Positions 2,803 to 18,683 of a stretch of 32,000 nucleotides of DNA are shown here, in pieces. Position numbers and translations under genes: made by a program. The stretch is taken from the NCBI GenBank assembly GCA_963704755.1, contig OY969938.1, forward strand, positions 2,310,001 through 2,342,000, read 5' to 3'. Origin of the DNA: an uncultured Chloroflexia bacterium (GTDB lineage: Bacteria > Chloroflexota > Anaerolineae > Anaerolineales > Anaerolineaceae). The notes beneath the pieces were generated by a model that saw only the letters and a list, made by a program, of their open reading frames with translations, was not told the origin of the DNA and did no database searches. How positions within the stretch are numbered: position 1 is the stretch's first letter; the number at the start of each line of letters is the position of its first letter.

Positions 2803-3104
2803 TTCTTCACCACCTTGCTAAAAATTTTCTGCAAATCAGCCTGGGCTTTAGGCAAGTCTTTATTCCTGACGAAATATTCCCGTAATTCCTGGATACTTTT
2901 TTGGATGGTTTCAGGGCTGGGATTCATCTCATAAATTATTGTAAGTCGCCCCAGAAGGATCTTGGTCGCCAGTAATTCGTAATGTGGGGATTCCTGGCCG
3001 GTAATCGCCTTGACCCAGCCGGGGTCGGACTCATCAGGAATTATCATCAGCAGCAGTCCTTGTATTGAGTGATCCGATATGCATCGATCCAGTGAAAGAT
3101 CCAA
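2799..3104 (-). CDS. Small hypothetical protein, first gene of the FIST-like/kinase operon
   Basis: ORF in the track with a TTG start at 3104. A more conventional ATG lies at 3047 (MIIPDESDPGW...). There is a 4-nt stop/start overlap with the next gene. No recognisable motif. Confidence 0.4.
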   Translation of the reverse strand: MDLSLDRCISDHSIQGLLLMIIPDESDPGWVKAITGQESPHYELLATKILLGRLTIIYEMNPSPETIQKSIQELREYFVRNKDLPKAQADLQKIFSKVVKN

Positions 3105-3166
3105 TAAGCCTTGTTTACTTTACTCCACTTGTGACAAGATTTACTAATGGAAAAAATCCGGGCTTA

Positions 3167-3195
3167 TTGACAAAAAGTCACAAAAATCATACAAA
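3167..3195 (+). promoter_or_regulatory. Candidate sigma70-type promoter reading into the left repeat array
   Basis: TTGACA (3167-3172), a 17-nt spacer, then TACAAA (3190-3195). It lies about 35 nt upstream of the first A repeat unit. Pattern match only. Confidence 0.25.
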
Positions 3196-3229
3196 AGCAG
3201 TCTTTTTCTGGAGTTTTTGGGGCCTGCCC

Positions 3230-3416
3230 GTAGCCCGGCTTTCAAAGCCGGGGGGGGGTAGCAAGACTGGCGTCTCTGACCGAGCCCGTGGCAGCTAAAG
3301 CTGCACCTACAAGTACACAAAGACCCACCTGCGTGGGTCTCTCTTTTGGCAGGGCCTGACCCCATGGCCGGGATTCTGCCGGGCCGGCGCTCTCTCGGGT
3401 TTGAAACCCGAGCTAC
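3230..3416 (+). repeat. A unit copy A1 (187 nt)
   Basis: Starts GTAGCCCGGCTTTCAAAGCCGGG and ends CTCGGGTTTGAAACCCGAGCTAC. Internal hairpins are CAGCTAAAGCTG and AGACCCACCTGCGTGGGTCT followed by CTCTTTTGG. Confidence 0.9.
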
Positions 3417-3463
3417 CTACTTAAAACCCGAGCTACCTGCTGGAGTTTTAGGAAGTGAGAGTC

Positions 3464-3628
3464 GTAGCCCGGCTTTCAAAGCCGAGAGGTAGCAAGACCG
3501 GCGTCTCTGACCGAGCCGGTGGCAGCTAAAGCTGCACCTACAAGTACACAAAGACCCACCTGCGTGGGTCTCTCTTTTGGCATAAGCCCGATTCTATAGT
3601 CGAGATTCTGCCCGGCAAGCCGGCGAAG
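3464..3628 (+). repeat. A unit copy A2, 3' part replaced by a variant tail leading into B1
   Basis: Near-identical to A1 from 3464 to about 3582. It then has the same variant tail as copy A6 (7007-7170). Confidence 0.8.
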
Positions 3629-3757
3629 TGCCCTCACCCCGGCCCTCTCCCAGCGGACAGGGCCGGTTCGGATGAGCGTTTTACGCTGGGAGAGGGTGAG
3701 AAAACTTCAAAAGAGAGGGGCCGGAGGCCCCTCTCTTTTGAATGCCACCTTACCCGA
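3629..3757 (+). repeat. B unit copy B1 (about 129 nt, two long hairpins)
   Basis: TGCCCTCACCCCGGCCCTCTCCCAGCG...CGCTGGGAGAGGG forms a 13-bp stem. AAAAGAGAGGGGCC-GGA-GGCCCCTCTCTTTT forms a 14-bp stem. A second copy lies at 7171-7298. Confidence 0.85.
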
Positions 3758-3788
3758 GGCTAACACCTCAGACCTGGCTTCGGGCATG

Positions 3789-3873
3789 CTCAAGCTGCAC
3801 CTACAGGCACACAAAGGTGGGTCTTCGTGTTTTTGTTGCCGCGACCTCGGTCGCCCACGGGCGTAGCCCGTCT
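3789..3873 (+). repeat. Chimeric segment: middle of an A unit fused to the 3' part of a C unit
   Basis: CTCAAGCTGCACCTACAGGCACACAAAG is A-like. It is joined directly to GTGGGTCTTCGTGTTTTTGTTGCCGCGACCTCGGTCGCC, which is C-like. The junction falls inside the shared AGACCCAC/GTGGGTCT hairpin module. Confidence 0.7.
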
Positions 3874-4057
3874 GTAGCCCGGCTTTCTAAGCCGGGGGGT
3901 AGCAGGACCGGTGTGTTTAACCGAGCCCGTAGCAGCTAAAGCTGCACCAACAAGTACACAAAGACCCACCTGCGTGGGTCTCTCTTTTGGCAGGGCCTGA
4001 CCCCATGGCCGGGATTCTGCCGGGCCGGCGTTTTCTCGGGTTTGAAACCCGAGCTAC
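3874..4057 (+). repeat. A unit copy A3 (184 nt)
   Basis: Full-length copy with the same termini as A1. Confidence 0.9.
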
Positions 4058-4108
4058 CTACAAGCCCGTCCCACTGATTGCGCCGCCGCGAAGCTTTCTC
4101 TTTAGGTT

Positions 4109-4114
4109 TATAAT
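4109..4114 (+). promoter_or_regulatory. Perfect TATAAT hexamer about 90 nt upstream of the DUF364-like gene
   Basis: TATAAT at 4109-4114. No convincing -35 at the correct spacing. Confidence 0.2.
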
Positions 4115-4202
4115 AGGACCCGGTGGATCCGCTTTGTTTTTCCGCCGGTGCCCCTAAATTTAAAATCGAAATACTTCCCATAAAAATCACAACAGGACTC
4201 TC

Positions 4203-4952
4203 ATGAATGTATTGGATGATTTAATCGCGTCCACCAGGATGGCCGCCCCGCGCGATCCGGTCGCAGAGGTGCGGGTTGGACTGTATTACACGGCCGTGCA
4301 GAGCCGCGAAACCGGCCTGGCCGCTACCATGAACAGCACCCCGTGCTGCAAGACGGAAAAACTGGAGTGGATGGGCCACCTGCACGAGCGTCCCGCCAGT
4401 GAGATGCTGCCGTTCCTGCGTTCCGAAAACCCCCTGGAAGTGAGCATCGGCCTGGCTGCGCTCAATTCGCTGATCCCCATCCAGCGCGGAAACGGGGTAG
4501 AAATCAACGCCCGTGACTTCATCCTCGAGCGCGGCCGCGATAAGAATATCGTCACCATCGGGCATTTCCCCTTTACCGATGCGCTCAGGAAGGTGGCCAA
4601 AAACGCCTGGGTGCTGGAATTGGACCCCTGCCCGGGTGATGAGCCTTCCGGCGCCGCCCCAGAGCTGCTCCCGCAGGCGGATATTATCGGCGTGACCGCC
4701 ACTACCTTGTTGAACGATACCTATGACGACCTGGCGCGGCTGTTTCCCAGACAGGCGTTGGTAGTCATGATCGGCCCATCCACCCCGTTCAGCCCGGTGC
4801 TGTTCGATTACGGCGTGGACGTCCTGGCCGGCTCGGTCGTGTGCGACCCGGCCGCCCTGTTCCACAGCGTCAGTCAGGGCGCAGCCCAACGCCAACTGGC
4901 CGGTCTGCAGCGCTATATCATGATGCGCGAATCGTTCGCCAAAGCAGCATGA
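4203..4952 (+). CDS. DUF4213/DUF364-family protein (Rossmann-like, 'putative heavy-metal chelation' family)
   Basis: 249-aa ORF. The layout resembles DUF4213 followed by DUF364: [12 protein letters not shown]...GLAAT, then IVTIGHFPF...VLELDP...[19 protein letters not shown]...[28 protein letters not shown] overlap with the next gene. Confidence 0.75.
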
Positions 4953-6253
4953 CCATTCGCATCACTCCGCTGGATGGCTGGACCAGCCGGAAAATTGCCT
5001 GCGAATCAAACCTGACCGCTGAAGCTCTCGCGGCCTATCAACTCGAAAAACTACGTCAGACGCTCGACCTGGCCCGCCGAAAAAGCCCGTTTTACCAAAA
5101 GCACCTGCAAGACGCGCCTAGCCGGATCACCAGCCTGGGGGACGTGGCCCAATTCCCCTTTACTACGGCCGAGGATATCCGCGCACACGCGCTGCAATTC
5201 CTGTGCGTCTCGCAGGATGAGATTCAGCGCGTGGTCACCCTGGATACGTCCGGCACCACCGGCCAACCCAAACGACTCTATTTCACCCGGGAAGACCAGG
5301 AACTGACCATCGACTTTTTCCAGGTCGGCATGTCCACTTTCACCGCGCCGGGGGACAAAGTCTTGATCCTGCTGCCGGGTGAACGGACCGGAAGCGTGGG
5401 CGACCTGCTGGCCATCGCCCTGCAGCGCCTGGGGGGCCACCCAATAAAACATGGCATTGTGGGGGATATTGCCGAGACGCTGGCCGTGATCCAGGCCGAA
5501 AAGGTGGATGGCCTGGTGGGTATACCAGCGCAGGTGCTCGCGCTGGCCCGCTACAGCCCGGATGTACGCCTCAAAAGCGTCCTGTTGAGCACCGACCATG
5601 TGCCGGGCGCGGTTGTCCGGGCGCTGGAGCATACCTGGAGCTGCCAGGTATACAACCACTACGGCATGACAGAAATGGGCCTGGGCGGCGGGGTCGATTG
5701 CCAGGCGCGGCGCGGGTATCACCTGCGCGAAGCCGATCTGTTCTTCGAGATCGTCGAGCCGTTGAGCGGCCGGCCGGTCGCGGAAGGCGAGGCCGGCGAG
5801 GTGGTCTTTACCACGCTCACCCGCCAGGGCATGCCGCTGATTCGCTATCGTACCGGCGACCTCAGCCGGTTCATCCCCGGCGTGTGCTCATGCGGGACCC
5901 GCCTGAAAACCCTGGAATGGATACGCCAACGGGTTGGCGGGGCCATTTCTATTGCGGGCCAGGGTCAATTAACCCTGGCCGATCTGGACGAAGCGCTCTT
6001 CGCGCTGGATGGCATCTATGACTTCAGCGCGACTTTTTCGCATGGCACCGGGGGAGATCGGCTCGACGTGCAGGCCCGTGCTATGCTGGACACTGGGCCT
6101 GCCCTGATTGGCGCTGTGGAAGCCGCCCTGGAGACCATCCCGGCAGTCCGCCTTGCCCGCGCCGCTGACCGGCTGGATGTGCAGATCGAAATCCTGGCCG
6201 GCCCGCCGGTGCCGCCCCCCGCGGGCAAGCGGGTGCTGCATATTTCTCAGTAG
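4949..6253 (+). CDS. Phenylacetate-CoA ligase / coenzyme F390 synthetase-like adenylate-forming enzyme (PaaK family)
   Basis: Motifs [20 protein letters not shown] and YRTGD; about 434 aa as in PaaK-like enzymes. The start is moved from the track's 4841 to ATG 4949, which overlaps the upstream stop (ATGA). The TAG stop lies inside a repeat module. Confidence 0.85.
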
Positions 6254-6279
6254 CCCGGCTTTGAAAGCCGGGGGGTAGC
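6250..6279 (+). repeat. Solo 5'-terminal module of the A unit, overlapping the ligase stop codon
   Basis: GTAGCCCGGCTTTGAAAGCCGGGGGGTAGC. The TAG at 6251-6253 is the stop codon of the ligase. Confidence 0.8.
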
Positions 6280-6383
6280 TTTATGTGTCAGGTGCCAAGT
6301 GTCAGGTGTCAGGGGCCTGGACCAGCCGAGGTCTACGACGATGGAGCTCCGTGCTGTTGGACGCCAACGGGCACAGCCCGTCC

Positions 6384-6571
6384 GTAGCCCGGCTTTCAAA
6401 GCCGGGGGGTAGCAAGGCTAGCGCCTCTGACCGGGCTCGGAGCAAGCAGCTAAAGCTGCACCTACAGCCACACGAAGCCCCACCTGCGTGGGGCTCCTTT
6501 TCGGCAAAGGTCGATTCTTTGGCCGGGATTCTGTCCGGCCGGCGCTCTCTCGGGTTCGAAACCCGAGCTAC
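6384..6571 (+). repeat. A unit copy A4 (188 nt)
   Basis: Full-length copy. Subtype with GACCGGGCTCGGAGCAAGCAGCTAAAGC, shared with A7. Confidence 0.9.
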
Positions 6572-6696
6572 TTAATAAGACCCGCCTTCGAAAGCCGGGC
6601 CGCGCCATACCCCCGTAGGGGTTGAGACCCACGCAGGTGGGTCTTCGTGTTTTTGTTGCCGCGACCTCGGTCGCCAACGTGCGTAGCCCGTCTATC
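6572..6696 (+). repeat. C unit copy C1 (125 nt) with a + strand intrinsic-terminator-like hairpin at 6625-6658
   Basis: AGACCCAC-GCAG-GTGGGTCT followed by TCGTGTTTTTGTTG, plus hairpins ACCCCCGTAGGGGT and GCGACCTCGGTCGC. Confidence 0.85.
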
Positions 6697-6880
6697 GTAG
6701 CCCGGCTTTCAAAGCCGGGGGGTAGCGAGACCGGCGCCTCTGACCAGGTCTGGAGCAGTTCAAGCTGCACCTACAGCCACACGAAGCCCCACCTGCGTAG
6801 GGCTCCATTTCGGCAAAACTCGATTCCATAGACAGGATGCTTTTTGGCCGACGCTCTCTCGGGTTCGAAACCCGAGCTAC
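6697..6880 (+). repeat. A unit copy A5 (184 nt)
   Basis: Subtype with GACCAGGTCTGGAGCAG. The central hairpin carries one mismatch (GTAGGGCT). Confidence 0.9.
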
Positions 6881-7006
6881 GCTAATAAGACCCGCCTTCA
6901 AAAGCTGGGCCGCGCCATACCCCCGTAGGGGTTGAGACCCACGCAGGTGGGTCTTCGTGTTTTTGTTGCTGCGACCTCGGTCGCCAACGTGCGTAGCCCG
7001 TCTATC
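6881..7006 (+). repeat. C unit copy C2 with terminator-like hairpin at 6935-6968
   Basis: Near-identical to C1. Confidence 0.85.
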
Positions 7007-7170
7007 GTAGCCCGGCTTTCAAAGCCGGGGGGTAGCGAGACCGGCGCCTCTGACCAGGTCTGGAGCAGCTAAAGCTGCACCTACAGCCACACGAAGCCCC
7101 ACCTGCGTGGGGCTCTCTTTTGACGTATGCCGATCCAATAGCCGGGGATTTGCCTGCCAAACCGACGAAA
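7007..7170 (+). repeat. A unit copy A6, 3' part replaced by a variant tail leading into B2
   Basis: Same A(trunc)+B architecture as 3464-3757. Confidence 0.8.
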
Positions 7171-7298
7171 TGCCCTCACCCCGACCCTCTCCCAGCGGAC
7201 AGGGCCGGTTCAGATCAACATAATACGCTGGGAGAGGGAGAAAAACCTCAGAGGAGAGGGGCCAAAGGCCCCTCTCCTCTGAATGCCACCTTACCCGA
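7171..7298 (+). repeat. B unit copy B2
   Basis: TGCCCTCACCCCGACCCTCTCCCAGCG...CGCTGGGAGAGGG and GAGGAGAGGGGCC-AAA-GGCCCCTCTCCTC. Relative to B1, the second stem has changes on both arms that keep pairing. Confidence 0.85.
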
Positions 7299-7305
7299 TC
7301 CAATC

Positions 7306-7493
7306 GTAGCCCGGCTTTCAAAGCCGGGGGGTAGCGAGACTGGCGCCTCTGACCGGGCTCGGAGCAAGCAGCTAAAGCTGCACCTACAGCCACACGAAGC
7401 CCCACCTGCGTGGGGCTCCTTTTCCGCAAAGCTCGATTCCATAGACAGGATGCTTTTTGGCCGGCGCTCTCTCGGGTTCGAAACCCGAGCTAC
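7306..7493 (+). repeat. A unit copy A7 (188 nt)
   Basis: Same subtype as A4. Confidence 0.9.
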
Positions 7494-7615
7494 TTAATAA
7501 GACCCGCCTTCGAAAGCCGGGCCGCGCCATACCCCCGTAGGGGTCGAGACCCACGCAGGTGGGTCTTCGTGTTTTTGTTGCCGCGACCTCGGTCGCCAAC
7601 GTGCGTAGCCCGCCT
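7494..7615 (+). repeat. C unit copy C3 with terminator-like hairpin at 7547-7580
   Basis: Near-identical to C1 and C2. Confidence 0.85.
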
Positions 7616-7799
7616 GTAGCCCGGCTTTCAAAGCCAGGGGGTAGCGAGACCGGCGCCTCTAACCAGGCCCGGAGCAGCTCAAGCTGTACCTACAGCCACA
7701 CGAAGACCCACCTGCGTGTGGCTCCTTTTCGGCAAAGGTCGATTCCATAGACAGGATGCTTTTTGGCCGGCGATCTCTCGGGTTCGAAACCCGAGCTAC
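7616..7799 (+). repeat. A unit copy A8 (184 nt), the most diverged copy
   Basis: The central hairpin has two mismatches (AGACCCAC / GTGTGGCT). The termini are intact. Confidence 0.85.
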
Positions 7800-7866
7800 C
7801 CCACCCAAACCTCAGCCCGGCGCAGGCCGGGCTTCGTGTTTTTGTTGCCGCGACCTCGGTCACCGG
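7800..7866 (+). repeat. Partial C unit C4 with a re-built terminator-like hairpin at 7814-7847
   Basis: AGCCCGGC-GCAG-GCCGGGCT followed by TCGTGTTTTTGTTGCCGCGACCTCGGTC. It has the same loop and tail as C1-C3 but a different, fully paired stem. Confidence 0.8.
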
Positions 7867-8084
7867 GGAGCGCCAATCAACTGAAACGCTGGAATTCAAA
7901 TCCCCACTTTCCAATCAGGATTATGCTTAACGCAATTCAATAAGCGATGAGGCTCGTTGCCCACGTCATTTTGAAGGATGGCTCCCTGAAAAAATACATC
8001 CGTAGAGGGTTTTTAGGGTTTTGGGTATTTAAGGTTGAGCGGCGTCGTCCCGCAAACAATCCAGGGGGGCCTTTCAGCCCTTAA

Positions 8085-8121
8085 AAGTTGAGTTGGCAAA
8101 CCGTATGCGGGTTTGCCAACT
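8085..8121 (-). terminator. Hairpin terminator downstream of glpK (possibly bidirectional)
   Basis: 12-bp stem AGTTGGCAAACC / GGTTTGCCAACT (8091-8102 pairs with 8110-8121). On the minus strand it is followed by CAACTTTTAA. It lies about 70 nt after the glpK stop. Confidence 0.55.
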
Positions 8122-8189
8122 CTTCGTGATTTTACCCCCCGGGCAGCAGGCTCGGGGGACCGCTAACTTAATCTCGAAATAAACCAGGG

Positions 8190-9698
8190 TTATCTAACCC
8201 ATTCAAAAGTACGCGTAATAGCGCGCTTCCAGTCCGAGTACTGGCGCTCACGAGTGTCCTGGTCCATCTTGGGCTCCCATTCCTTATCCTTACCCCAGTT
8301 GGAGCGCAGTTCATCGAAGTTGCTCCAGAACCCTACCGCCAGACCCGCTGCGTAGGCGGCGCCCAGCGCGGTAGTCTCGGCCACTTTCGGCCGGATGACC
8401 GGTACGTTGAGGATATCCGCCTGGAACTGCATCAGGAGCTCGTTGAATACCATCCCACCATCTACTTTGAGCGCGGTCAGATGCACCCCCGAGTCCTTCT
8501 CCATCGCATCCAATACCTCGCGAGTCTGGAAGGCGGTCGCCTCGAGCACGGCGCGCGCCAGGTGGCCCTTGTTGACGTAGCGGGTCAGCCCGACGATCAC
8601 GCCGCGGGCATCAGACCGCCAATACGGTGCAAACAACCCGGAGAAGGCCGGCACAAAGTAAATCCCGCCGTTGTCCTCGACCGTACGCGCCAGCAGTTCG
8701 ATTTCCGAGGATTTCTGGATCATGCCCATGTTGTCACGTATCCACTGGACTAGTGCACCGGTGATGGCGATCGAACCTTCCAGCGCGTACACCGCCGGCT
8801 CCTTGCCCACTTTGTAACCCATAGTGGTCAGAAGGCCACTCTTGGAGGGCACGGGCTTGGTGCCGGTATTGAGCAGCATGAAACAGCCGGTGCCGTAGGT
8901 GTTCTTGGCCTCTCCAGGGGTGTAGCAGGCCTGTCCAAACAGCGCTGCCTGCTGGTCGCCCAGGTCGCCGGCTACCGGCAGACCGGCCAACGGCCCGGAA
9001 GCCACCTTGCCGTAGACCTCCGACGAGGCGCAGATCCGGGGCAGCATAGAACGCGGGATATCCATAACCTCAAGAATCTCATCATCCCAGTCGAGGGTAT
9101 TAAGGTCCATTAGCATGGTGCGTGACGCGTTGGAAACATCGGTGACGTGCACCCCACCATTAGGCCCACCGGTCAGGTTCCAGATCAGCCAGGTATCGAT
9201 GTTGCCAAAGAGAAGCTCACCTCGCTCGGCACGCGTTCGTGCATCCTGCACATTATCCAGAATCCACTTAATCTTGGGGCCGGAGAAATAGGTGGCCAGC
9301 GGAAGGCCGACTTTTTCTCGAAAGCGGTCTTGCCCGCCCTGCCTGGCGAACTCGTTGATAATCTGGTCGGTGCGCGTGTCTTGCCATACGATGGCATTAT
9401 AGACTGGGAACCCGGTGGCTTTATCCCACACCACAGTTGTCTCGCGCTGATTGGTAATGCCGACCGCGGCGACGTCTTGCGGATTGATGGCCGGTTTGCC
9501 AATTGGATCCATGGCTTCCTGAATGACTTCTTGTGTACGCGCCCAGATCTCCATGGGGTGGTGCTCGACCCAGCCGGGCTTCGGGAAGATCTGCTCATGT
9601 TCTTTTTGGGCTATGCCCTGGACTGTGCCACTGTGGTCAAAGATCATGCAGCGGGTGCTGGTAGTACCCTGATCGATTGCTACAGCATACTTTGTCAT
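8190..9698 (-). CDS. glpK: Glycerol kinase
   Basis: 502 aa. Contains [52 protein letters not shown] and other GlpK signature blocks. Strong SD (GAGGAGGAGAA) before ATG 9698. Confidence 0.97.
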
Positions 9699-9849: not shown

Positions 9850-11661
9850 TTAAATTGCTGCCGCAAAAACACCAAACGCAGCCAGCAACCAGACTATAAA
9901 CAGCGTCACCAACGAAACGCCTACATATACACGCCCAGTCTTGCGGAAGAAATAAGTGTACAAACAGGCGGCCAGCGGGAAGAGGATCAGCATCGGGAGG
10001 TAGTAAATCCCGCCCATACCGGCAAACGTCCCGCCCATCGGTCCCGTTGCTGCGGAAGCAATGATCTGCGTACCGCCCGCCATCAAAGGTATGTACAGCA
10101 TCAAAATCCAAACCAGTGCGCCCAGAGTCAGCACCACTGCATTGGTCACCATCTCGCGAGCCAGACTGGCCTTGCCGCTATTGACCCGTAAGAAGCCCGC
10201 GAACAAGATTCCTTGCGGAACGTAGAAGAGGGCAAAGGGGATCAGGTACCCCAGGAAAGCCTGGAAACGGTTGGGCGACATCGGCATCAGGGCCACAACC
10301 CAGGCTCGGAAGTCGACAAAAAACACGCCATGGATGAATGCAAGCAACAGATAAAGCGGGGCGAGGATGCTCAAAGATAGCAAAATGGATTTTCCAACTT
10401 TGCCCCAGTCCACGCCTTTTCCTTCCCAGGCCAGGCCATAGTTTACCGCCGTTGCACCCTGCTTCTTGGTGAAGACATAGTGATTGAAGAAAATCAGGAT
10501 AATCGCAATGACGCCGACGGCGATCGTCCAGAGCATGTAAACATTGGTGAAGCTCTGCGGCCATATGCTATTGGCCGGGATGAGCGGTGCTGCAAATTCA
10601 TGCGCCCATGCCCAAAAATAAACCAATGGCCCTACAGCAGTGGTGATTAAAGCCCCTATCCACCAGCCAATCCCGGTAAAGCCCTTGAAAGCTGGGACCT
10701 TCTCAACCAATGGCTGGAAAAAGGAGGTTTGCAGCAGCAAAGCTCCCATCGGGAAAAAGAATAGCAAGGCACCGAGGAGAGCTGCTGCCGTTCCAAACAA
10801 CTTCCATCCCCAAATCTGATTCGTGCCCGGAAGGCCCGTACCACCTTTGAGGGTGGTTTCCATCCAGGTTATGGCATTGCCAATGGCAGCCGGTGAATTG
10901 GTTGACCCGGCATGTTCTTCAAATGGCTGGTAAAGAATCCGCGCCGTTCCATCGGCTACCGAACCATACATCTTCCCTGGCACGATTGGATCAGTTGTAT
11001 TGAAAACAGGCTGGATAACGGGCGAGACAACCGCATCCGCCCCTCTGCCGACCATAACCATCCCGGACAACTCGGTAAATGAGCCGATATTGAACGCCAC
11101 GTTTTTCAAACCGTTACAGGGAGTGATGTCCATGCTGCCCGGAGGGGTGCATTCCGATTCCATGTAAAAGATGGATGTATAGCCGTCCGGTATGGCATTC
11201 GCCGCCGCGGTGACCGGCCCAAATCCACCTTGCGACATCCCCACCAGGCCGATGTTGTCCTTGTCCACAATGGGAAGCGAACGTAAATAATTCAAAGTGT
11301 CCGGGCCACCATAGCCATCCTCACCGTTGAGACCGGAAGAATAACCATGCCCGGTCATATCTGCAGAGAGGACAACATACCCCCGCCGCGCAAACTCCAG
11401 GGCCGTATTATCCATATAATCTTTTTGGTTATTTAGCCCATGAAACAGCATGATGGCGGGCGCGGGGTTCATTGCACTCACGCCTTTAGGGGTATACAAG
11501 TAGGCACTAAAGGTATACCCATTCGACCCGTGAAACTTGATATCCTGAACTGTGGCTGCTCCTGCTCCAGTGTTGACCCAGGAAGCAAGTAAACTGCCCC
11601 CCAGCATCAACACCAAAGTAATGATCAGAAAACGCCAATAAGTCCGATTCTTTCCGTTCAT
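9850..11661 (-). CDS. Membrane-embedded alpha/beta-hydrolase: N-terminal signal anchor, serine-hydrolase domain, about 8-TM C-terminal domain (paralogue 1)
   Basis: MLFHGLNN (HG oxyanion motif), nucleophile elbow GMSQGG and candidate catalytic His in FEEHAGS, followed by about 300 aa of hydrophobic helices. The start is moved from 11685 to ATG 11661, which has GAGGAG 6 nt upstream and aligns with the paralogue N-terminus MNGHHNKYW. Confidence 0.8.
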   Translation of the reverse strand: MNGKNRTYWRFLIITLVLMLGGSLLASWVNTGAGAATVQDIKFHGSNGYTFSAYLYTPKGVSAMNPAPAIMLFHGLNNQKDYMDNTALEFARRGYVVLSADMTGHGYSSGLNGEDGYGGPDTLNYLRSLPIVDKDNIGLVGMSQGGFGPVTAAANAIPDGYTSIFYMESECTPPGSMDITPCNGLKNVAFNIGSFTELSGMVMVGRGADAVVSPVIQPVFNTTDPIVPGKMYGSVADGTARILYQPFEEHAGSTNSPAAIGNAITWMETTLKGGTGLPGTNQIWGWKLFGTAAALLGALLFFFPMGALLLQTSFFQPLVEKVPAFKGFTGIGWWIGALITTAVGPLVYFWAWAHEFAAPLIPANSIWPQSFTNVYMLWTIAVGVIAIILIFFNHYVFTKKQGATAVNYGLAWEGKGVDWGKVGKSILLSLSILAPLYLLLAFIHGVFFVDFRAWVVALMPMSPNRFQAFLGYLIPFALFYVPQGILFAGFLRVNSGKASLAREMVTNAVVLTLGALVWILMLYIPLMAGGTQIIASAATGPMGGTFAGMGGIYYLPMLILFPLAACLYTYFFRKTGRVYVGVSLVTLFIVWLLAAFGVFAAAI

Positions 11662-11913
11662 ATTATTCTCCTCTATAAAATACATGATTAGTTACCAACG
11701 AAGTATTTCACCTCAGGATTGCCTTAAGTCGAATTCTCCTTTCAGCGTAGTAAAATTTCGGATCACGCAGGTTTTACCGTCGTTCCGGGACTGGAGAATT
11801 GCGCCTTTCGATCAAAGCGTTCATCTCCAGTCCTTCCATTCCCTCGCTAGATGCATTTCTGCGGGACAGAATGAGGCCGGTTTTGGCAAAAGTTAAAGGC
11901 TACAAATTACACC

Positions 11914-13677
11914 CTAACCGCCAAAAGCGAAAACGGCATTGGCTGCCACCAGATACCAGACGATAAAGAACGTGTTGATCAATGCGCCAACGTACACATG
12001 GCCCGTTTTGCGGTAGAAGAAAGTAGAAATGCAAGCAATCACCGGCAGAAGCCCAATCATCGCAATAGCATTGATCAGGCCCAACCCGCCAGGACCAAAG
12101 TTCGCTGGAGCGCCGAAGAATTCCAGCGGGATATAGAAGTAAGCCAATACGACACCGAGTCCGATCAACAGGATTGCGGTATTGATAAGCATTTCCTGTC
12201 CCAGGGTGGCTTTGCCGTTTTTCGGCCGTAGCGTCCCATGTAATACAACGGATATGGGGATGAAATAAATCGCGGCAGGGATAATATAGGCCAGCAGCAT
12301 ATAAAAATGCTGGTAATCTGTGACTTTGAGGGTGAGAATCCAGAAACGGAAATCAACCATCAACAAGGAATTGATGAGGAAGAGCAAGATGTATCCAGAG
12401 ACTACGACGGCCAATGCTAACAACACTGACTTTCCGATCTTGCCCCAATCCAATCCCTTTTCAGGCCACTTCAAGCCATAGCTAACGCCTGTCGCACCAT
12501 CTTTGCGACCGAGGAGAAAATAGCTTCCCACCAGGATGACGATTGTGATTAGCCCAACAACCATCATCCAACCGAGAAAGCCGGTCGTGATGCCTTCCAT
12601 ATGGAAATAATTAGCATTGAAGAAATACAAGAAGAGCTTATAGAGGGTCAGGGGACCCAGCAGAGCCGTGACAACGACGAAAACCCACCAGGTGACGCCG
12701 GTCGAACCTTTGTAAACGGGCAGAGGGTCGATCAGCGATTGGAAATACGGTACCCCGAGCAGTAGAGCCCCCACTGCAATCAAAAACAAAACCAGTCCAA
12801 TGAACGCCAGAAGAGTACCCAGGTCCTTAACCGGCCAGATTTGGCTCACCGACTCCAGGCTGGCGTTCTGGGCCCCCTGGAGCGTCATCCCGAACCAGCT
12901 TATTGCATTGCCAATCGAAACCGGGTCATCGGTCGAATAAGGGTGGTCGCCAAAATGGTTGTAGAAGACCTTACCGGTCCCATCTGCAATCGAGCCGTAC
13001 ACCTGGCCCGGAACGATAGGTTGGTCAGTGCCGTAGGTTTTCATCGCGTCAGGCATGAGCGGTACCTGTCCACCATTAGCAGCTCCAAACGGTTGTGGTA
13101 CTTCGCTGCCTTTTCCCCAACTAATGGCAAAGTTTTTATCCTTATCGCACTGCGAACAGCTCGAGTCCATGAAGAACATGCTTTCATAACCGTCAGGCAT
13201 CAACTGTGCAGCAGCTTCGATTGCCATTCCCCCCATAGACATACCGATTAAACCAACGTTATCTGGATCGACGATATCCAGGCTGCGTAAATATTTAAGC
13301 CCATCGTAAGTGCCATAAGCATTCGCATTAGGGGAAGGCGCGGAAGAAGACCCGGAAAGCCCATGTTTATCCAGGTCCATTGTCAGAACCACGTAACCAC
13401 GGCGCGCCAACTCCAGGGCCGTGTTGTTCATGTACTCCTTGCTGTTATTGTAGCCGTGCGCCACCAGGATACCGGGAGCCGGGTGGCCGGTGGTCACACC
13501 TTTTGGAACGAATAAATTTGCATCGTATATGCCGTTATAAGTGCCATAAAACTTGACCTCCGTCACGGTGGCCGTGCCAGCGCCTGTCTGAATCCAACTT
13601 GCCAGCGTGCTTCCTCCAAGAACAAGAACCAGTGCAACGATTAACAATGTCCAATACTTATTATGATGACCGTTCAT
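11914..13677 (-). CDS. Membrane-embedded alpha/beta-hydrolase with about 8-TM C-terminal domain (paralogue 2)
   Basis: Same architecture as paralogue 1: LVAHGYNN, GMSMGG, FGDHPYS and a polytopic C-terminal half. SD AGAGGAAG before ATG 13677. Confidence 0.8.
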   Translation of the reverse strand: MNGHHNKYWTLLIVALVLVLGGSTLASWIQTGAGTATVTEVKFYGTYNGIYDANLFVPKGVTTGHPAPGILVAHGYNNSKEYMNNTALELARRGYVVLTMDLDKHGLSGSSSAPSPNANAYGTYDGLKYLRSLDIVDPDNVGLIGMSMGGMAIEAAAQLMPDGYESMFFMDSSCSQCDKDKNFAISWGKGSEVPQPFGAANGGQVPLMPDAMKTYGTDQPIVPGQVYGSIADGTGKVFYNHFGDHPYSTDDPVSIGNAISWFGMTLQGAQNASLESVSQIWPVKDLGTLLAFIGLVLFLIAVGALLLGVPYFQSLIDPLPVYKGSTGVTWWVFVVVTALLGPLTLYKLFLYFFNANYFHMEGITTGFLGWMMVVGLITIVILVGSYFLLGRKDGATGVSYGLKWPEKGLDWGKIGKSVLLALAVVVSGYILLFLINSLLMVDFRFWILTLKVTDYQHFYMLLAYIIPAAIYFIPISVVLHGTLRPKNGKATLGQEMLINTAILLIGLGVVLAYFYIPLEFFGAPANFGPGGLGLINAIAMIGLLPVIACISTFFYRKTGHVYVGALINTFFIVWYLVAANAVFAFGG

Positions 13678-14371: not shown

Positions 14372-15863
14372 TCAATCCTTTAGCCAACCACAAGTACGTT
14401 CAATCGCTTTTTTCCACCCATGATACAACTCGTTGCGACGTTCTAAGGATAAATTGGGTTCCCAATGCCGCTCTACCCGGACCAGGGACTGCGTTTCATC
14501 AGCCGATTCCCAATATCCAGTGGCCAGGCCGGCTAAAAATATGGCCCCCAGAACACTGCTTTCGATGATCATTGGTCGCTCGACCACAATTCCAAGGATA
14601 TCCGCCATAAATTGCATCAAAAAATCATTTTTCGCACTACCGCCGCCGACCCGAATATGGTCGAATTTTTTGCCTGAGCGCAGTTGCATCACATCAAACA
14701 AATCCCTTATTTGATAAGCCATCCCCTCCAAGGCAGCGCGTACGAGATGATATTTCGATGTCCCCTGCGTGATTCCGAAGAAGCTTCCCCGGGAATATGG
14801 GTCATTATAGGGGCCACCTAACCCAGCGAAAGCCGGTACGAAATAGACCCCGGAGGTATCGGAGACGCGGGCCGCAAATATTTCTGCCTCGGCAGCGTCT
14901 TGGATGATACCCAATTCATCCCGAAGCCACTGGAGGGCGGCTCCGGAGACATTTGCCCAACTTCCCATTCCCCGCGTAACGTAACCATCAATTCCCCATA
15001 GCACCGGAGACCCTACTCCACCTCCTGCCGAGAATAGTTGTTTGCCGGTATTGAGGATTAGCGAGGATCCTGTCCCCATATTACAGGAAAGCATACCAGG
15101 CTGATGACCGCCCAAGCCGAACACCGCCGCGAATTGATCTCCGGCAACTCCAGCAATGGGCAGACTGGCATCAAAGAAGACTTCCGGCTTGGTATACGCG
15201 TAGATCTCACTGGAGCTGTGTAATTCTGGGAGGATCTCGATAGGGATACCCATTTCATTCAATATCCACTCATCATAATGAAGGGAATTGATGTTGAATA
15301 ATAAACCCGGGCTTGCATTCGACATATCCGTAACAAAGACGCCACCAGAAAGCTTCCAAATCAGCCAGGCATCCACCGTGCCAAAGAGGAGCTCACTACG
15401 TGCCAATCCGCGTTGAATTGAACGATCGTGCTCAATCAGCCAGCGGATTTTTACAGCAGAACAATTGGGATTTATTTGAGCCCCCGTTCGTGCTTTAAAA
15501 TTCATCCTGGCTTTTCATATTCAAACGTTCACTAATGGGAAGCGAGCGGATATCCTGCCACCCGATTGCCCGGCCTACAGCTTCACCTGTGAATTTGTTC
15601 CAGAAGATCGTCGTCAGTAATTGATTGGTTATCCCGATTGCCTCGATGTCTTCTGGCAAGATCCGGCCGTTCTTAAAGGCCTCGCCAGTCACTTTCAACA
15701 CAGCAGCAAAGATCTCATCTGGATCCTGCTCAACCCACCCCGGCTGTGGAAAATACAGTTTATTCTCGATTACTGCGCTTGATATAACCCTTGCATAGTG
15801 ATCCAAAATAACCGCTTTTGTAAACGTTGTTCCCTGATCTATCCCCAAGATGTATCTTCCCAT
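14372..15863 (-). pseudogene. FGGY-family / glycerol-kinase paralogue interrupted by a +1 frameshift in a T4/A4 run near 15497-15500
   Basis: Track ORFs 15495..15938 (N-terminal part: GIDQGTTFTKAVILD, ITNQLLTTIFWN) and 14372..15505 (C-terminal part: GDQFAAVFG, VYFVPAFAGLGGPY) overlap by 11 nt. On the minus strand GAT GAA TTTT AAA GCA reads through as QDEFKARTG if one T is removed, colinear with Glp[10 protein letters not shown]. The likely true start is ATG 15863 (MGRYILGIDQGTT, SD GGAGAAAAGG). Confidence 0.8.
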
Positions 15864-15889
15864 CACCTTTTCTCCATATACGATTTGTT

Positions 15890-16544
15890 CTAAGTCTTGG
15901 AGGTCCTGTTTTCGATTGTTATCCCGGATTCGAGGCAAACACGTACGAGGCTGGCGACGTTTTCTACATCAAGTTTCCGCATGGCATCACGTCTTCTGTT
16001 TCTCAACCGTTTTCACGCTCGTATGCAGATCTTCGGCAATTTCTTTGGTTGACCGCCCGGCAACAATTCGGCTGGCAACTTCCCGCTCTCGGGGAGATAA
16101 ACGGTCCATGGGATTCTGGGGCCTCGAAGACAAGGTATGATAGGTCAGGATATGTGAAACACCTGAACTCAAATAACCACTCCCTCGATTTGCCGCGCGA
16201 ATTGCATCGATCAACTCTTCACTGACGGATTGCTTCAGAACATACCCCAGTGCCCCCAGCTCGAGCGCCTCCTGAACCAGCGCCAGGTCTGCGTGGATCG
16301 AGAGGATTACCACTCTTGATTTTAAGTTATTTTCTCGCATTAATTTGAGGACATTCAGGCCATCCATTTGTGGCATCGAAATATCCAAAACCATCACATC
16401 TGGCTGGAGATCACGGGCCAACTGGAAAGCATCTTCACCGTTACCCGCTTCACCAATAACCTGAAATTCATCCATGTCTTCCAACAGTCTGCAAATCCCC
16501 TGCCGGATAATGTGGAAATCTTCTGCAACTACTACTCGGATCAT
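15890..16544 (-). pseudogene. NarL/LuxR-family response regulator with an apparent +1 frameshift inside the HTH (track ORF ends prematurely at 15987)
   Basis: The receiver starts at ATG 16544 (MIRVVVAEDF..., D in VMVLDISMP, K in GYVLKQS). The HTH stops at ...SVKTVEKQKT*. The adjacent frame continues RRDAMRKLDVENVASLVRVCLESGI... to a TAG at 15890-15892, which is the expected rest of a LuxR-type HTH. Confidence 0.75.
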
Positions 16545-18407: not shown

Positions 18408-18683
18408 ATGCTCAACAATAAAATTCCCGAAAATGAAAAACTCGAGACACAAGAAGAAATTGGCGTAGTGAACAACGAACCGGAAAACCGCGATAGCGCC
18501 GGATCGACTCCGATCGAGGAAGAAGTTGGCGTAGTGAACAACGAGCCGGAAAACCGCGATAAAACCGAATCGACCCCGGTCGAGGAAGAGATTGGGGTGG
18601 TGAACAATGAAACACCTGGCAAAGGGGAGCCCGGAGAACCCATTGTTGGAAGAATTTATAACGAAAAAGTCGATCAGAAATAA
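18408..18683 (+). CDS. Small, highly acidic protein made of three 22-aa tandem repeats (EE[IV]GVVNNEPENRD..STP[IV]E)
   Basis: Strong SD AAGGAG 8 nt before the ATG. It has 66-nt DNA repeats starting at 18453, 18519 and 18585. The differences in the conserved peptide core are mostly synonymous (GGCGTAGTG vs GGGGTGGTG, GAA vs GAG). A 22-bp hairpin follows the stop. Confidence 0.65.
   Translation: MLNNKIPENEKLETQEEIGVVNNEPENRDSAGSTPIEEEVGVVNNEPENRDKTESTPVEEEIGVVNNETPGKGEPGEPIVGRIYNEKVDQK

Follow-up and report, generated by a model that had tools for sequence, protein, structure and literature searches.

Two hairpin-rich intergenic arrays in an Anaerolineaceae genome as a probable mosaic cluster of GTAG-tagged repetitive extragenic palindromes

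The stretch of DNA analysed here (the window; 32,000 nucleotides, positions 2,310,001 to 2,342,000 of contig OY969938.1, assembly GCA_963704755.1) comes from an uncultured member of the Anaerolineaceae, in the phylum Chloroflexota, and contains a tandem array of hairpin-rich units (array 2, 6250-7866) between a ligase gene and a convergent glpK gene. An earlier note on this DNA, made from the letters alone, had placed this array correctly but had left out a sister array of the same family (array 1, 3230-4057, + strand), which was recognized from direct-repeat families, motif positions and alignment. Judged from their sequence, the two arrays are probably mosaic clusters, resembling bacterial interspersed mosaic elements (BIMEs), of GTAG-tagged repetitive extragenic palindromes (REPs) from a family not recorded before and known here from two arrays in 32 kb. 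The locus is a mosaic of element types that are already known, namely GTAG REPs, a BoxC-type motif and intrinsic terminators, and the family, new within this known kind, has a unit that is unusually long and composite and in which the BoxC-type motif is embedded.

GTAG-tagged palindromes

The basic element of both arrays is a 23-nt REP, composed of a GTAG tag, a perfect GC-rich 8-bp stem and a 3-nt loop. The A unit, the larger component of each repeat period, carries one such element at either end: its 5′ end reads GTAG followed by CCCGGCTT-TCA-AAGCCGGG, while its 3′ end reads CTCGGGTT-CGA-AACCCGAG followed by CTAC, the opposite strand of which is GTAG CTCGGGTT-TCG-AACCCGAG. The unit is thereby a REP (REPa, stem CCCGGCTT) and an inverted REP (REPb, stem CTCGGGTT) with their GTAG tags facing outward and a 142-nt hairpin-rich linker between them, and six A units are complete in having REPa on the + strand and REPb on the - strand. 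The 23-bp terminal inverted repeats of the unit are identical at 18 of 23 positions, and the two stems differ at two of eight pairs, both of them compensated (CG to UA at pair 2 and CG to GC at pair 6).

When up to three mismatches are allowed, the pattern GTAGCYCGGSTTTCRAASCCGRG has 17 matches in comparison with 0.01 expected, out of 17-18 copies in the window, all within the two arrays (nine on the + strand, six perfect ones on the - strand and two degenerate ones on the - strand inside C units, the smaller component of the period). Perfect hairpins with GTAG, an 8-bp stem and a 3-nt loop number 13, against 0.24 in shuffled sequence, and a further four have one to three mismatches; no GTAG-tagged hairpin was found in the window outside the arrays or in the 61 kb of related loci scanned (L015, L017 and L035). 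In each of the 15 a- and b-type copies the tag abuts the 5′ side of the stem, with variable bases preceding it, and 93% of the stem cells are paired. In the REP copies of the C units the tag has decayed, to GCGG in two and to CGG, with the first base missing, in a third. The first REP of array 2 overlaps the end of a coding region, the TAG stop codon of the ligase gene (6251-6253) lying within its GTAG, and the sequence there is TCAGTAGCCCGG.

These dimensions agree with those of known REPs, which have stems of 6-13 bp and loops of mostly 2-3 nt and whose GTAG termini often supply the TAG stop codon of the adjoining gene (Di Nocera et al., 2013, PMC3733652), and one group of which consists of short REPs that are as a rule perfect palindromes (Corneloup et al., 2021, PMC8266576). 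As in the definition of a REP, the element is a short palindrome with a GTAG tag at one end and with stem subfamilies related by compensated changes and, as in that of a BIME, a REP and an inverted REP are joined by a linker and occur in consecutive tandem copies.

Array organization

Tandem Repeats Finder describes array 2 as a single array from 6362 to 7800 with a period of 310 bp, 4.7 copies, 75% matches, 7% indels and a score of 1682, in agreement with the period of approximately 310 bp reported in the earlier note. The five A-unit starts given there (6384, 6697, 7007, 7306 and 7616) are all exact as judged by the position of GTAGCCCGGCTTT, which marks further starts at 6250, 3230, 3464 and 3874, with all copies on the + strand. 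Alignment also bears out the division of the period into two units, A of about 185 nt and then C of about 125 nt, as well as the presence of a B unit in place of C in one period of array 2 (7007-7305), where a truncated A unit leads into a B unit of about 170 nt; this truncated-A-then-B block occurs once in each of the two arrays. The parts of array 2 are listed below.

6250-6272, + strand: solitary REPa hairpin at the ligase stop codon, GTAG CCCGGCTT TGA AAGCCGGG (hairpin and pattern scans)
6285-6383, + strand: junk spacer, with a (GTGTCAG)x4 microsatellite at 6285-6313, lying after the stop-codon REP and ahead of the first full unit, and then a degenerate C-unit 3′ end, GACGCCAACGGGCACAGCCCGTCC (Tandem Repeats Finder; 70-74% identity to C units)
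6384-6571, + strand: A4, REP-linker-inverted-REP, with REPa at 6384-6406 (+), REPb at 6549-6571 (GTAG on the - strand) and an internal hairpin with a weak U-tract at 6476-6495
6572-6696, + strand: C1, with a degenerate inverted REP at 6581-6603 (-), a terminator at 6624-6645 with its tail reaching to about 6658, a small hairpin CCCCCGTAGGGG, a hairpin GCGACCTCGGTCGC and a partial GTAGCCCG
6697-6880, + strand: A5, with REPa at 6697-6719 (+) and REPb at 6858-6880 (-)
6881-7006, + strand: C2, with a terminator at 6934-6955 and tail
7007-7129, + strand: A6, truncated past the internal hairpin, with REPa at 7007-7029
7130-7305, no strand assigned: B2 (direct-repeat families, terminator scan, pairwise identity and BoxC match)
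7306-7493, + strand: A7, mosaic of the A4 type and the A5/A8 type (alignment and REP pattern)
7494-7615, + strand: C3, with a terminator at 7546-7567 and tail
7616-7799, + strand: A8, with REPa at 7616-7638 (one mismatch) and REPb at 7777-7799 (-)
7800-7866, + strand: C4, a short variant, with the terminator AGCCCGGC-GCAG-GCCGGGCT at 7814-7833 and the same tail as the other C units, TCGTGTTTTTGTTGCCGCGACCTCGGTC

Array 1 lies in the divergent intergenic region upstream of a DUF364 gene, and the two arrays bracket this DUF364/DUF4213 gene together with the ligase gene. The direct-repeat search yields three A units in array 1, the order of which is A1 (3230-3416), a truncated A2 (3464-3587), B1 (3588-3760), a hybrid C0 (3761-3873, with a terminator tail at 3823-3838) and A3 (3874-4057). 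Just upstream of the array a TTGACA-17-TACAAA element on the + strand (3167-3195) points into it; transcripts from this element, if it is active, would cross four terminator-like hairpins before reaching DUF364, and a lone TATAAT at 4099-4104 is nearer to that gene.

Units are 88-97% identical within arrays and 76-88% identical between them. The earlier note had sorted the A copies of array 2 into two subtypes, but the copies are in fact mosaics: A7 matches A4 at alignment columns 21-100 and from column 161 onwards, and A5/A8 at columns 101-160, and this patchwork points to recombination or gene conversion between units. Similarly, of the higher-order repeat proposed at a distance of 922 bp, the first part holds (6383-6682 and 7305-7604 are 95% identical), but the similarity has no clean extension to A8-C4. 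The mosaic units, the pattern of identities and the common truncated-A-then-B block are the signature of unequal recombination and gene conversion, that is, of expansion and homogenization.

Terminators and the C unit

The C units were said to contain inverted versions of A-unit modules, which is correct in substance, ACACGAAGCCCCACCTGCGTGGGGCTC and GAGACCCACGCAGGTGGGTCTTCGTGT being 93% complementary over 27 nt, but the exact string quoted in support belongs to the upstream array, where AGACCCAC-CTGC-GTGGGTCT is the A-unit hairpin (3321, 3552 and 3962). The corresponding hairpin of A4-A7 is a compensated variant of this form, AGCCCCAC-CTGC-GTGGGGCT. Two inverted A modules are found in C, a decayed REP (for example at 6581-6603) and a 27-39-nt block around the internal hairpin of A, and it is this second block that, together with a T-run, makes up the strong + strand terminator of the C unit. 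Among the variants of the internal and terminator hairpin (AGACCCAC/GTGGGTCT, AGCCCCAC/GTGGGGCT and AGCCCGGC/GCCGGGCT) three of the eight pairs show compensated changes, by which the hairpin is maintained, and the three changes in the stem of the C4 terminator are all fully compensated.

As had been observed previously, the U-tracts are all on the + strand (TTCGTGTTTTTGTTG at 6644, 6954, 7566 and 7833), each behind a GC-rich hairpin; five C units, four in array 2 and one in array 1, close on the + strand with a GC-rich hairpin and, after it, TCGTGTTTTTGTTG. Each period has two terminator-like hairpins on this strand. Between 3000 and 8300 there are 17 terminator-like sites, against 6.2 +/- 2.8 in shuffles, while the rest of the window, with 28 against 23 +/- 5, shows no enrichment. 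With 0.28 matches expected, the pattern CTTCGTGWTTTT has seven, of which six fall in the arrays or in the following hairpin beyond array 2.

8098-8133, + strand: solitary hairpin with a 13-bp stem, GAGTTGGCAAACC-GTATGC-GGGTTTGCCAACTC, and the tail CTTCGTGATTTT, of the type found in the C-unit terminators and, as in them, with GTTGAG ahead of the hairpin

This hairpin, the membership of which in the repeat family is uncertain, may be a native terminator from which the tail of the C unit originated. The AT-richer segment ahead of it (7867-8097) holds only a doubtful 45-aa open reading frame (ORF; 7947-8084).

With four strong + strand terminators standing between convergent genes, and with the B unit providing a - strand terminator that faces glpK, it might be supposed that array 2 is a selected stack of consecutive terminators needed to insulate the ligase operon from glpK. 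We regard this as very improbable: one or two terminators would suffice, relatives manage without such a stack, and the recent units contain decayed stems (a G-to-A change in A5 and two mismatches in A8). Moreover, array 1 has + strand terminators, its upstream genes lie on the - strand and there is nothing for it to terminate; as no + strand gene leads into it, a terminator function cannot explain where array 1 is placed.

The B unit

The B unit comprises a hairpin with a 13-bp stem and a perfect 16-bp hairpin (7248-7282 in B2) that reads as a - strand terminator; in the latter B1 and B2 differ at two pairs, both compensated. B2 also contains a BoxC/triplex-type motif, CCCTCACCCCGACCCTCTCCCAGCG...CGCTGGGAGAGGG, at approximately 7173-7238. 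The equivalent in B1 reads CCCTCACCCCGGCCCTCTCCC...GGGAGAGGG at 3632-3695. In the TMECO type B layout of an intrastrand triplex, pyrimidine blocks CCCTCACCC and CCCTCTCCC and a purine block GGGAGAGGG stand one after another (Holder et al., 2015, PMC4666352), and the B arm has this layout in the blocks CCCTCACCCC, CCCTCTCCC and GGGAGAGGG, as a putative triplex motif of the BoxC/PIT/TMECO kind. The resemblance extends to the setting, the B units being at a locus of broken synteny and the known elements having a reported association with variable loci (PMC4666352). On the other hand, blocks 2 and 3 are separated by a loop of about 36 nt, of which a 4-bp stem extension is part, in contrast to one of 3-5 nt in E. 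coli, and each array has only one copy of the motif, set within a truncated A unit.

The arm of the first hairpin, GTGCCCTCACCCCGGCCCTCTCCCA (3628-3652 in B1 and 7170-7194 in B2), is identical at 25 of 25 positions to an intergenic element of E. coli, a striking identity of non-coding sequence across phyla. The E. coli element is unannotated; one to four copies of it, such as the one downstream of argF, are present in about 3,900 of the 5,426 complete genomes of this species. B2 is bracketed by a perfect 10-bp direct repeat, CCGATCCAAT (7130-7139 and 7293-7302), which may be the scar of a recombination event or a duplicated target; the sites flanking B1, CCGATTCTAT and CCGAGGCTAA, are only partly alike.

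Coding potential and RNA structure

The view that array 2 is not convincingly protein-coding is upheld, given that the periods (313, 310, 299 and 310 bp) are not multiples of three and that the ORFs of the array have no Pfam match. The open frame of the A unit has no words in common with any of 5.8 billion protein clusters. An ORF on the - strand was rejected as a protein, its lone match (P0243, a 1745-aa ORF over a 153-bp AT-rich satellite in L038) being repeat-inflated and unrelated at the DNA level. The Rfam search proposed in the earlier note gave no match at the gathering score over the window, and only sub-threshold chance matches at E<=10 in 3100-8200; ARAGORN found no tRNA or tmRNA.

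Several other classes of element were considered and rejected. A tRNA-like element, with CTCGGGTTCGAAACCCGAG as a T-arm with a TTCGAAA loop and the 5′ loop TTTCAAA as an anticodon loop, was discarded because the hairpin is the inverted REP and the array-1 copies have TTTGAAA. Inspection of the repeats for an integron attC array revealed no proper pair of R''/R' core sites, RYYYAAC ... GTTRRRY, the window has no tyrosine recombinase or integrase, and it is whole units that are repeated. Lastly, a CRISPR array, a retron and a T-box were dismissed for want of spacers, cas genes, a reverse transcriptase and an Rfam match.

The folding of the repeats is strong on both strands. The A consensus reaches -63.1 kcal/mol on the + strand and -69.1 kcal/mol on the - strand, where GTAG pairs with CTAC, and a full period has a minimum free energy of -160 (z -7.1) on the + strand and -164.6 (z -8.1) on the - strand. 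The single-mismatch disruptions of stems are C.A on the + strand in the three cases inspected, corresponding to G.U-compatible pairs on the - strand, although with n=3 this is only a hint, and according to the alignment the 3′ third of the A unit and of its linker has no structure conserved across copies. No sigma-70-like promoter recurs within the units, and neither of the two promoter-like sites in 3000-8300 is repeated; the unit-internal candidates TCGCCA-16-TATCGT, at the C/A junction, and TTCGAA-12/13-TAATAA were rejected as weak and not conserved across units.

These results bear on the proposal that the arrays are tandem genes for structured small RNAs (sRNAs), or an array of RNAs processed from a 3′ untranslated region, each unit being the source of a discrete, terminator-ended RNA, roughly 150-300 nt long, with a role in trans or in sponging up a protein. 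Other bacteria do have sRNAs in tandem arrays, and the z value of about -7, the two + strand terminator-like hairpins per period, the compensation at three of eight pairs of the terminator stem and the promoter-like element at 3167-3195 aimed into array 1 are all in keeping with this proposal. It is nevertheless improbable in our judgement: even at E<=10 Rfam offers no sensible match, the units lack a conserved sigma-70-like promoter, the - strand folds as well as or better than the + strand and is the one on which the three inspected mismatches are tolerated as G.U, the 3′ third of the A unit is without conserved structure, and the arrays are absent from syntenic relatives.

Genomic context

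The genes between the arrays are the following.

4203-4952, + strand: DUF364/DUF4213 gene (Pfam PF04016, 2.3e-36; PF13938, 1.5e-15)
4949-6253, + strand: DVU_1553-type AMP-dependent ligase, of 434 aa in the public record (P0001, 100% identical)

The homologues of the ligase are annotated as DVU_1553 family or phenylacetate-CoA ligase; besides P0001, the best of them, at 66-69% identity, belong to Anaerolineae-type organisms such as Longilinea, and the C-terminus of the ligase falls within a few residues of the homologue ends. Across array 2 the ligase gene is convergent with glpK, which is intact at 8190-9698.

A related locus, L035 (JGI Ga0248167_1000988), matches the window in gene order, at 69-75% DNA identity, over a kinase, DUF6976, a small ORF and the DUF364-ligase pair, the DUF364 gene being syntenic at 75% DNA identity. 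Its order is XdhC<-ligase<-DUF364, 363 bp, small ORF->DUF6976, without arrays, and the divergent intergenic region that measures 363 bp there measures 1,098 bp in the window. After the ligase gene, and directly so in L035, xdhC is found in L015, L017 and L035 (3816-4889, against 6254-8189 in the window) and in the P0130 contig, whereas a tblastn search of the window revealed no xdhC remnant and array 2 stands in its place. Past array 2 synteny is broken, with glpK in the window and an acetyltransferase in L035. None of the relatives' loci (L015, L016, L017, L035, L036, L039 and L040) contains the repeats.

The alternative history in which the two genes were inserted into a pre-existing array was rejected, the position of DUF364-ligase beside small ORF-DUF6976 being the ancestral arrangement. 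Since the genes between the arrays are ancestral, the repeat family reached two intergenic sites independently, and in this comparison with relatives the arrays appear as lineage-specific additions. No insertion point for array 1 emerged from aligning the flanks in the window with the 363-bp region of L035, which gave scores below shuffle level.

Outside the arrays, searches for the family were negative. Scans with GTAGCCCGGCTTTNNAAGCC, the 5′ hairpin, gave 14 single hits in GTDB species representatives, for which about 17 chance hits are expected by our own estimate, and 17 in JGI metagenomes, which is chance level. These hits were rejected as members of the family, none of them extending past the hairpin, apart from an unrelated 33-nt chance match in L027. 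Viral contigs gave no hits for two patterns, and plasmids and phages gave no blastn match.

This distribution might also be the outcome of a locus-restricted tandem duplication, in which a terminator-rich intergenic segment was amplified through unequal crossing-over or slippage and was copied a single time into the adjacent intergenic region, with no link to a transposase, no dispersal and a GTAG that is coincidental. Such an explanation accommodates the confinement of every copy in the window to two arrays 2 kb apart, the failure to find a copy in any public collection searched, the lack of a transposase in the window and the higher identity within than between arrays (88-97% against 76-88%), as local expansion predicts. 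We nevertheless consider it unlikely, as it leaves to coincidence the exact REP format in both orientations, with tags outward and compensated stem variants, and the use of the TAG of the tag as a stop codon; a same-phylum precedent exists for GTAG REPs clustered at few loci, and crossing 2 kb of conserved genes needs an ectopic mechanism anyway.

Further features of the window lie beyond glpK. Tandem paralogous alpha/beta-hydrolase genes on the - strand (9850-11685, 611 aa, and 11914-13677, 587 aa) have in common a 100-nt stretch of 70% identity (11369-11468 and 13385-13484). An FGGY-family sugar kinase on the - strand is split into overlapping ORFs, with the N-terminal domain at 15495-15938 and the rest at 14372-15505, which suggests a frameshifted pseudogene or a long-read assembly indel. 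Finally, a 66-bp tandem repeat at 18453-18611 (2.4 copies, 84-88% identity) lies in a 91-aa + strand ORF (18408-18683) without a Pfam match and may encode a repeat peptide, its period being a multiple of three.

Discussion

Among the roles put forward in the earlier note, which had left the choice between them open, that of a REP/BIME family is favoured by the tagged inverted palindromes, the equal folding of the two strands, the mosaic units and the absence from relatives; tandem sRNA genes are unsupported, and the terminator stack holds only as a description. The closest known case is the GTAG-23 family of the Chloroflexi Thermomicrobium roseum and Roseiflexus castenholzii (Di Nocera et al., 2013, PMC3733652; Corneloup et al., 2021, PMC8266576), which in T. 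roseum is clustered in blocks at few loci (PMC3733652), as are the repeats described here. With the GTAG REPs and BIMEs of E. coli, Pseudomonas and Stenotrophomonas the arrays have in common a tag directly 5′ of a short, GC-rich, perfect palindrome, head-to-head pairs of REP and inverted REP, stem subtypes related by complementary changes, tandem reiteration together with flanking DNA, a location outside genes, in most cases downstream of one and where two genes converge, and the service of the TAG of the tag as a stop codon. They differ in having a stem unmatched in GTDB species representatives, JGI metagenomes, plasmids, phages and viral contigs, a linker of 142 nt in which three or four further hairpins lie, in place of the usual 20-100 bp, a period of 310 bp, and a reiterated flanking piece that carries a full intrinsic terminator.

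Two other kinds of element invite comparison. The REPINs of Pseudomonas fluorescens (Bertels and Rainey, 2011), in which an inverted REP doublet is the replicative unit, are reportedly about 100 nt in length and form one long hairpin. They resemble the A unit in containing two inverted REPs per unit and in that the terminal GTAG and CTAC can pair, whereas here the two REPs fold apart and the unit, of about 185 nt, has an unrelated structured middle. As in miniature inverted-repeat transposable elements (MITEs), a small non-coding unit of about 185 bp with 23-bp terminal inverted repeats is present at more than one site; unlike in MITEs, no target-site duplication is visible at the unit ends, which are self-folding GTAG hairpins, and we know of no cognate insertion sequence for these units.

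How such arrays may have arisen can be outlined by analogy with systems of REPs and REP-associated tyrosine transposases (RAYTs), the basis for inferring a seeding step (PMC8266576, PMC2817692). A RAYT/TnpA-REP HuH tyrosine transposase, with its gene elsewhere in the genome, would act or have acted on the REPs as single-stranded DNA, and would thereby have seeded both sites. The A unit has been reiterated head-to-tail with a neighbouring piece of DNA, the C unit, which gives the 310-bp period, and unequal crossing-over, replication slippage and gene conversion would then have expanded and homogenized each array. The first REP and the first terminators probably end the DUF364-ligase transcript, stabilize its 3′ end and block antisense transcription into glpK, and the B hairpin may stop read-through from glpK, while the later units would be redundant passengers. 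In E. coli, translation of a gene can be lowered, through ribosome stalling, by REPs that lie no more than about 15 nt from its stop codon; if this effect applies here, translation of the ligase would be affected.

Several observations weigh against the assignment to a REP/BIME family. The hallmarks of classical REP families are tens to hundreds of copies scattered across the genome and a RAYT flanked by REPs; in the 32-kb window Pfam scans found no transposase or Y1 HuH/RAYT gene, and outside the arrays the window has no copy of the family. The scans with the 5′ hairpin gave chance-level hits only and, if the genome of origin is among those scanned with the window alone masked, the exact hairpin is not dispersed in it. 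The 142-nt linker and the 310-bp period exceed those of typical REP dimers, with spacers of 20-100 bp. In addition, because REPa and REPb are homologous, the GTAG tag is effectively one independent observation, with a chance probability of about 1-3%.

The repeated module could also be seen as something other than a passive cluster. The 310-bp module would in that case be a mobile 'portable terminator', a long-linker REP doublet with its own terminator that moves as one piece from one intergenic region to another, or the A unit of 185 nt an expressed, structured RNA held closed by a helix of GTAG and CTAC, in either case serving the DUF364-ligase pair. We hold this to be a slim prospect; if it were true, the module might compensate for the lost xdhC end of the operon, or the direct-repeat arrays might allow amplification or excision of the genes that they bracket.

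Read as a BIME-like cluster of GTAG-tagged REPs, the locus adds a clear example of this type in the Anaerolineae, within a phylum, the Chloroflexota, for which there are hardly any descriptions of REPs. Like those of Thermomicrobium, the repeats seem to come as large blocks and not as dispersed singletons. The locus also shows such a block sitting on a stop codon and replacing the distal end (xdhC) of a conserved operon, as well as its co-assembly with a BoxC/triplex motif, a 25-nt arm of which is identical to that of E. coli. For annotation, the gap should not be said to contain genes or novel sRNAs without expression data. Should a REP-flanked RAYT exist in this genome, the two would provide a useful substrate-enzyme pair from a distant phylum for the perfectly palindromic type of REP.

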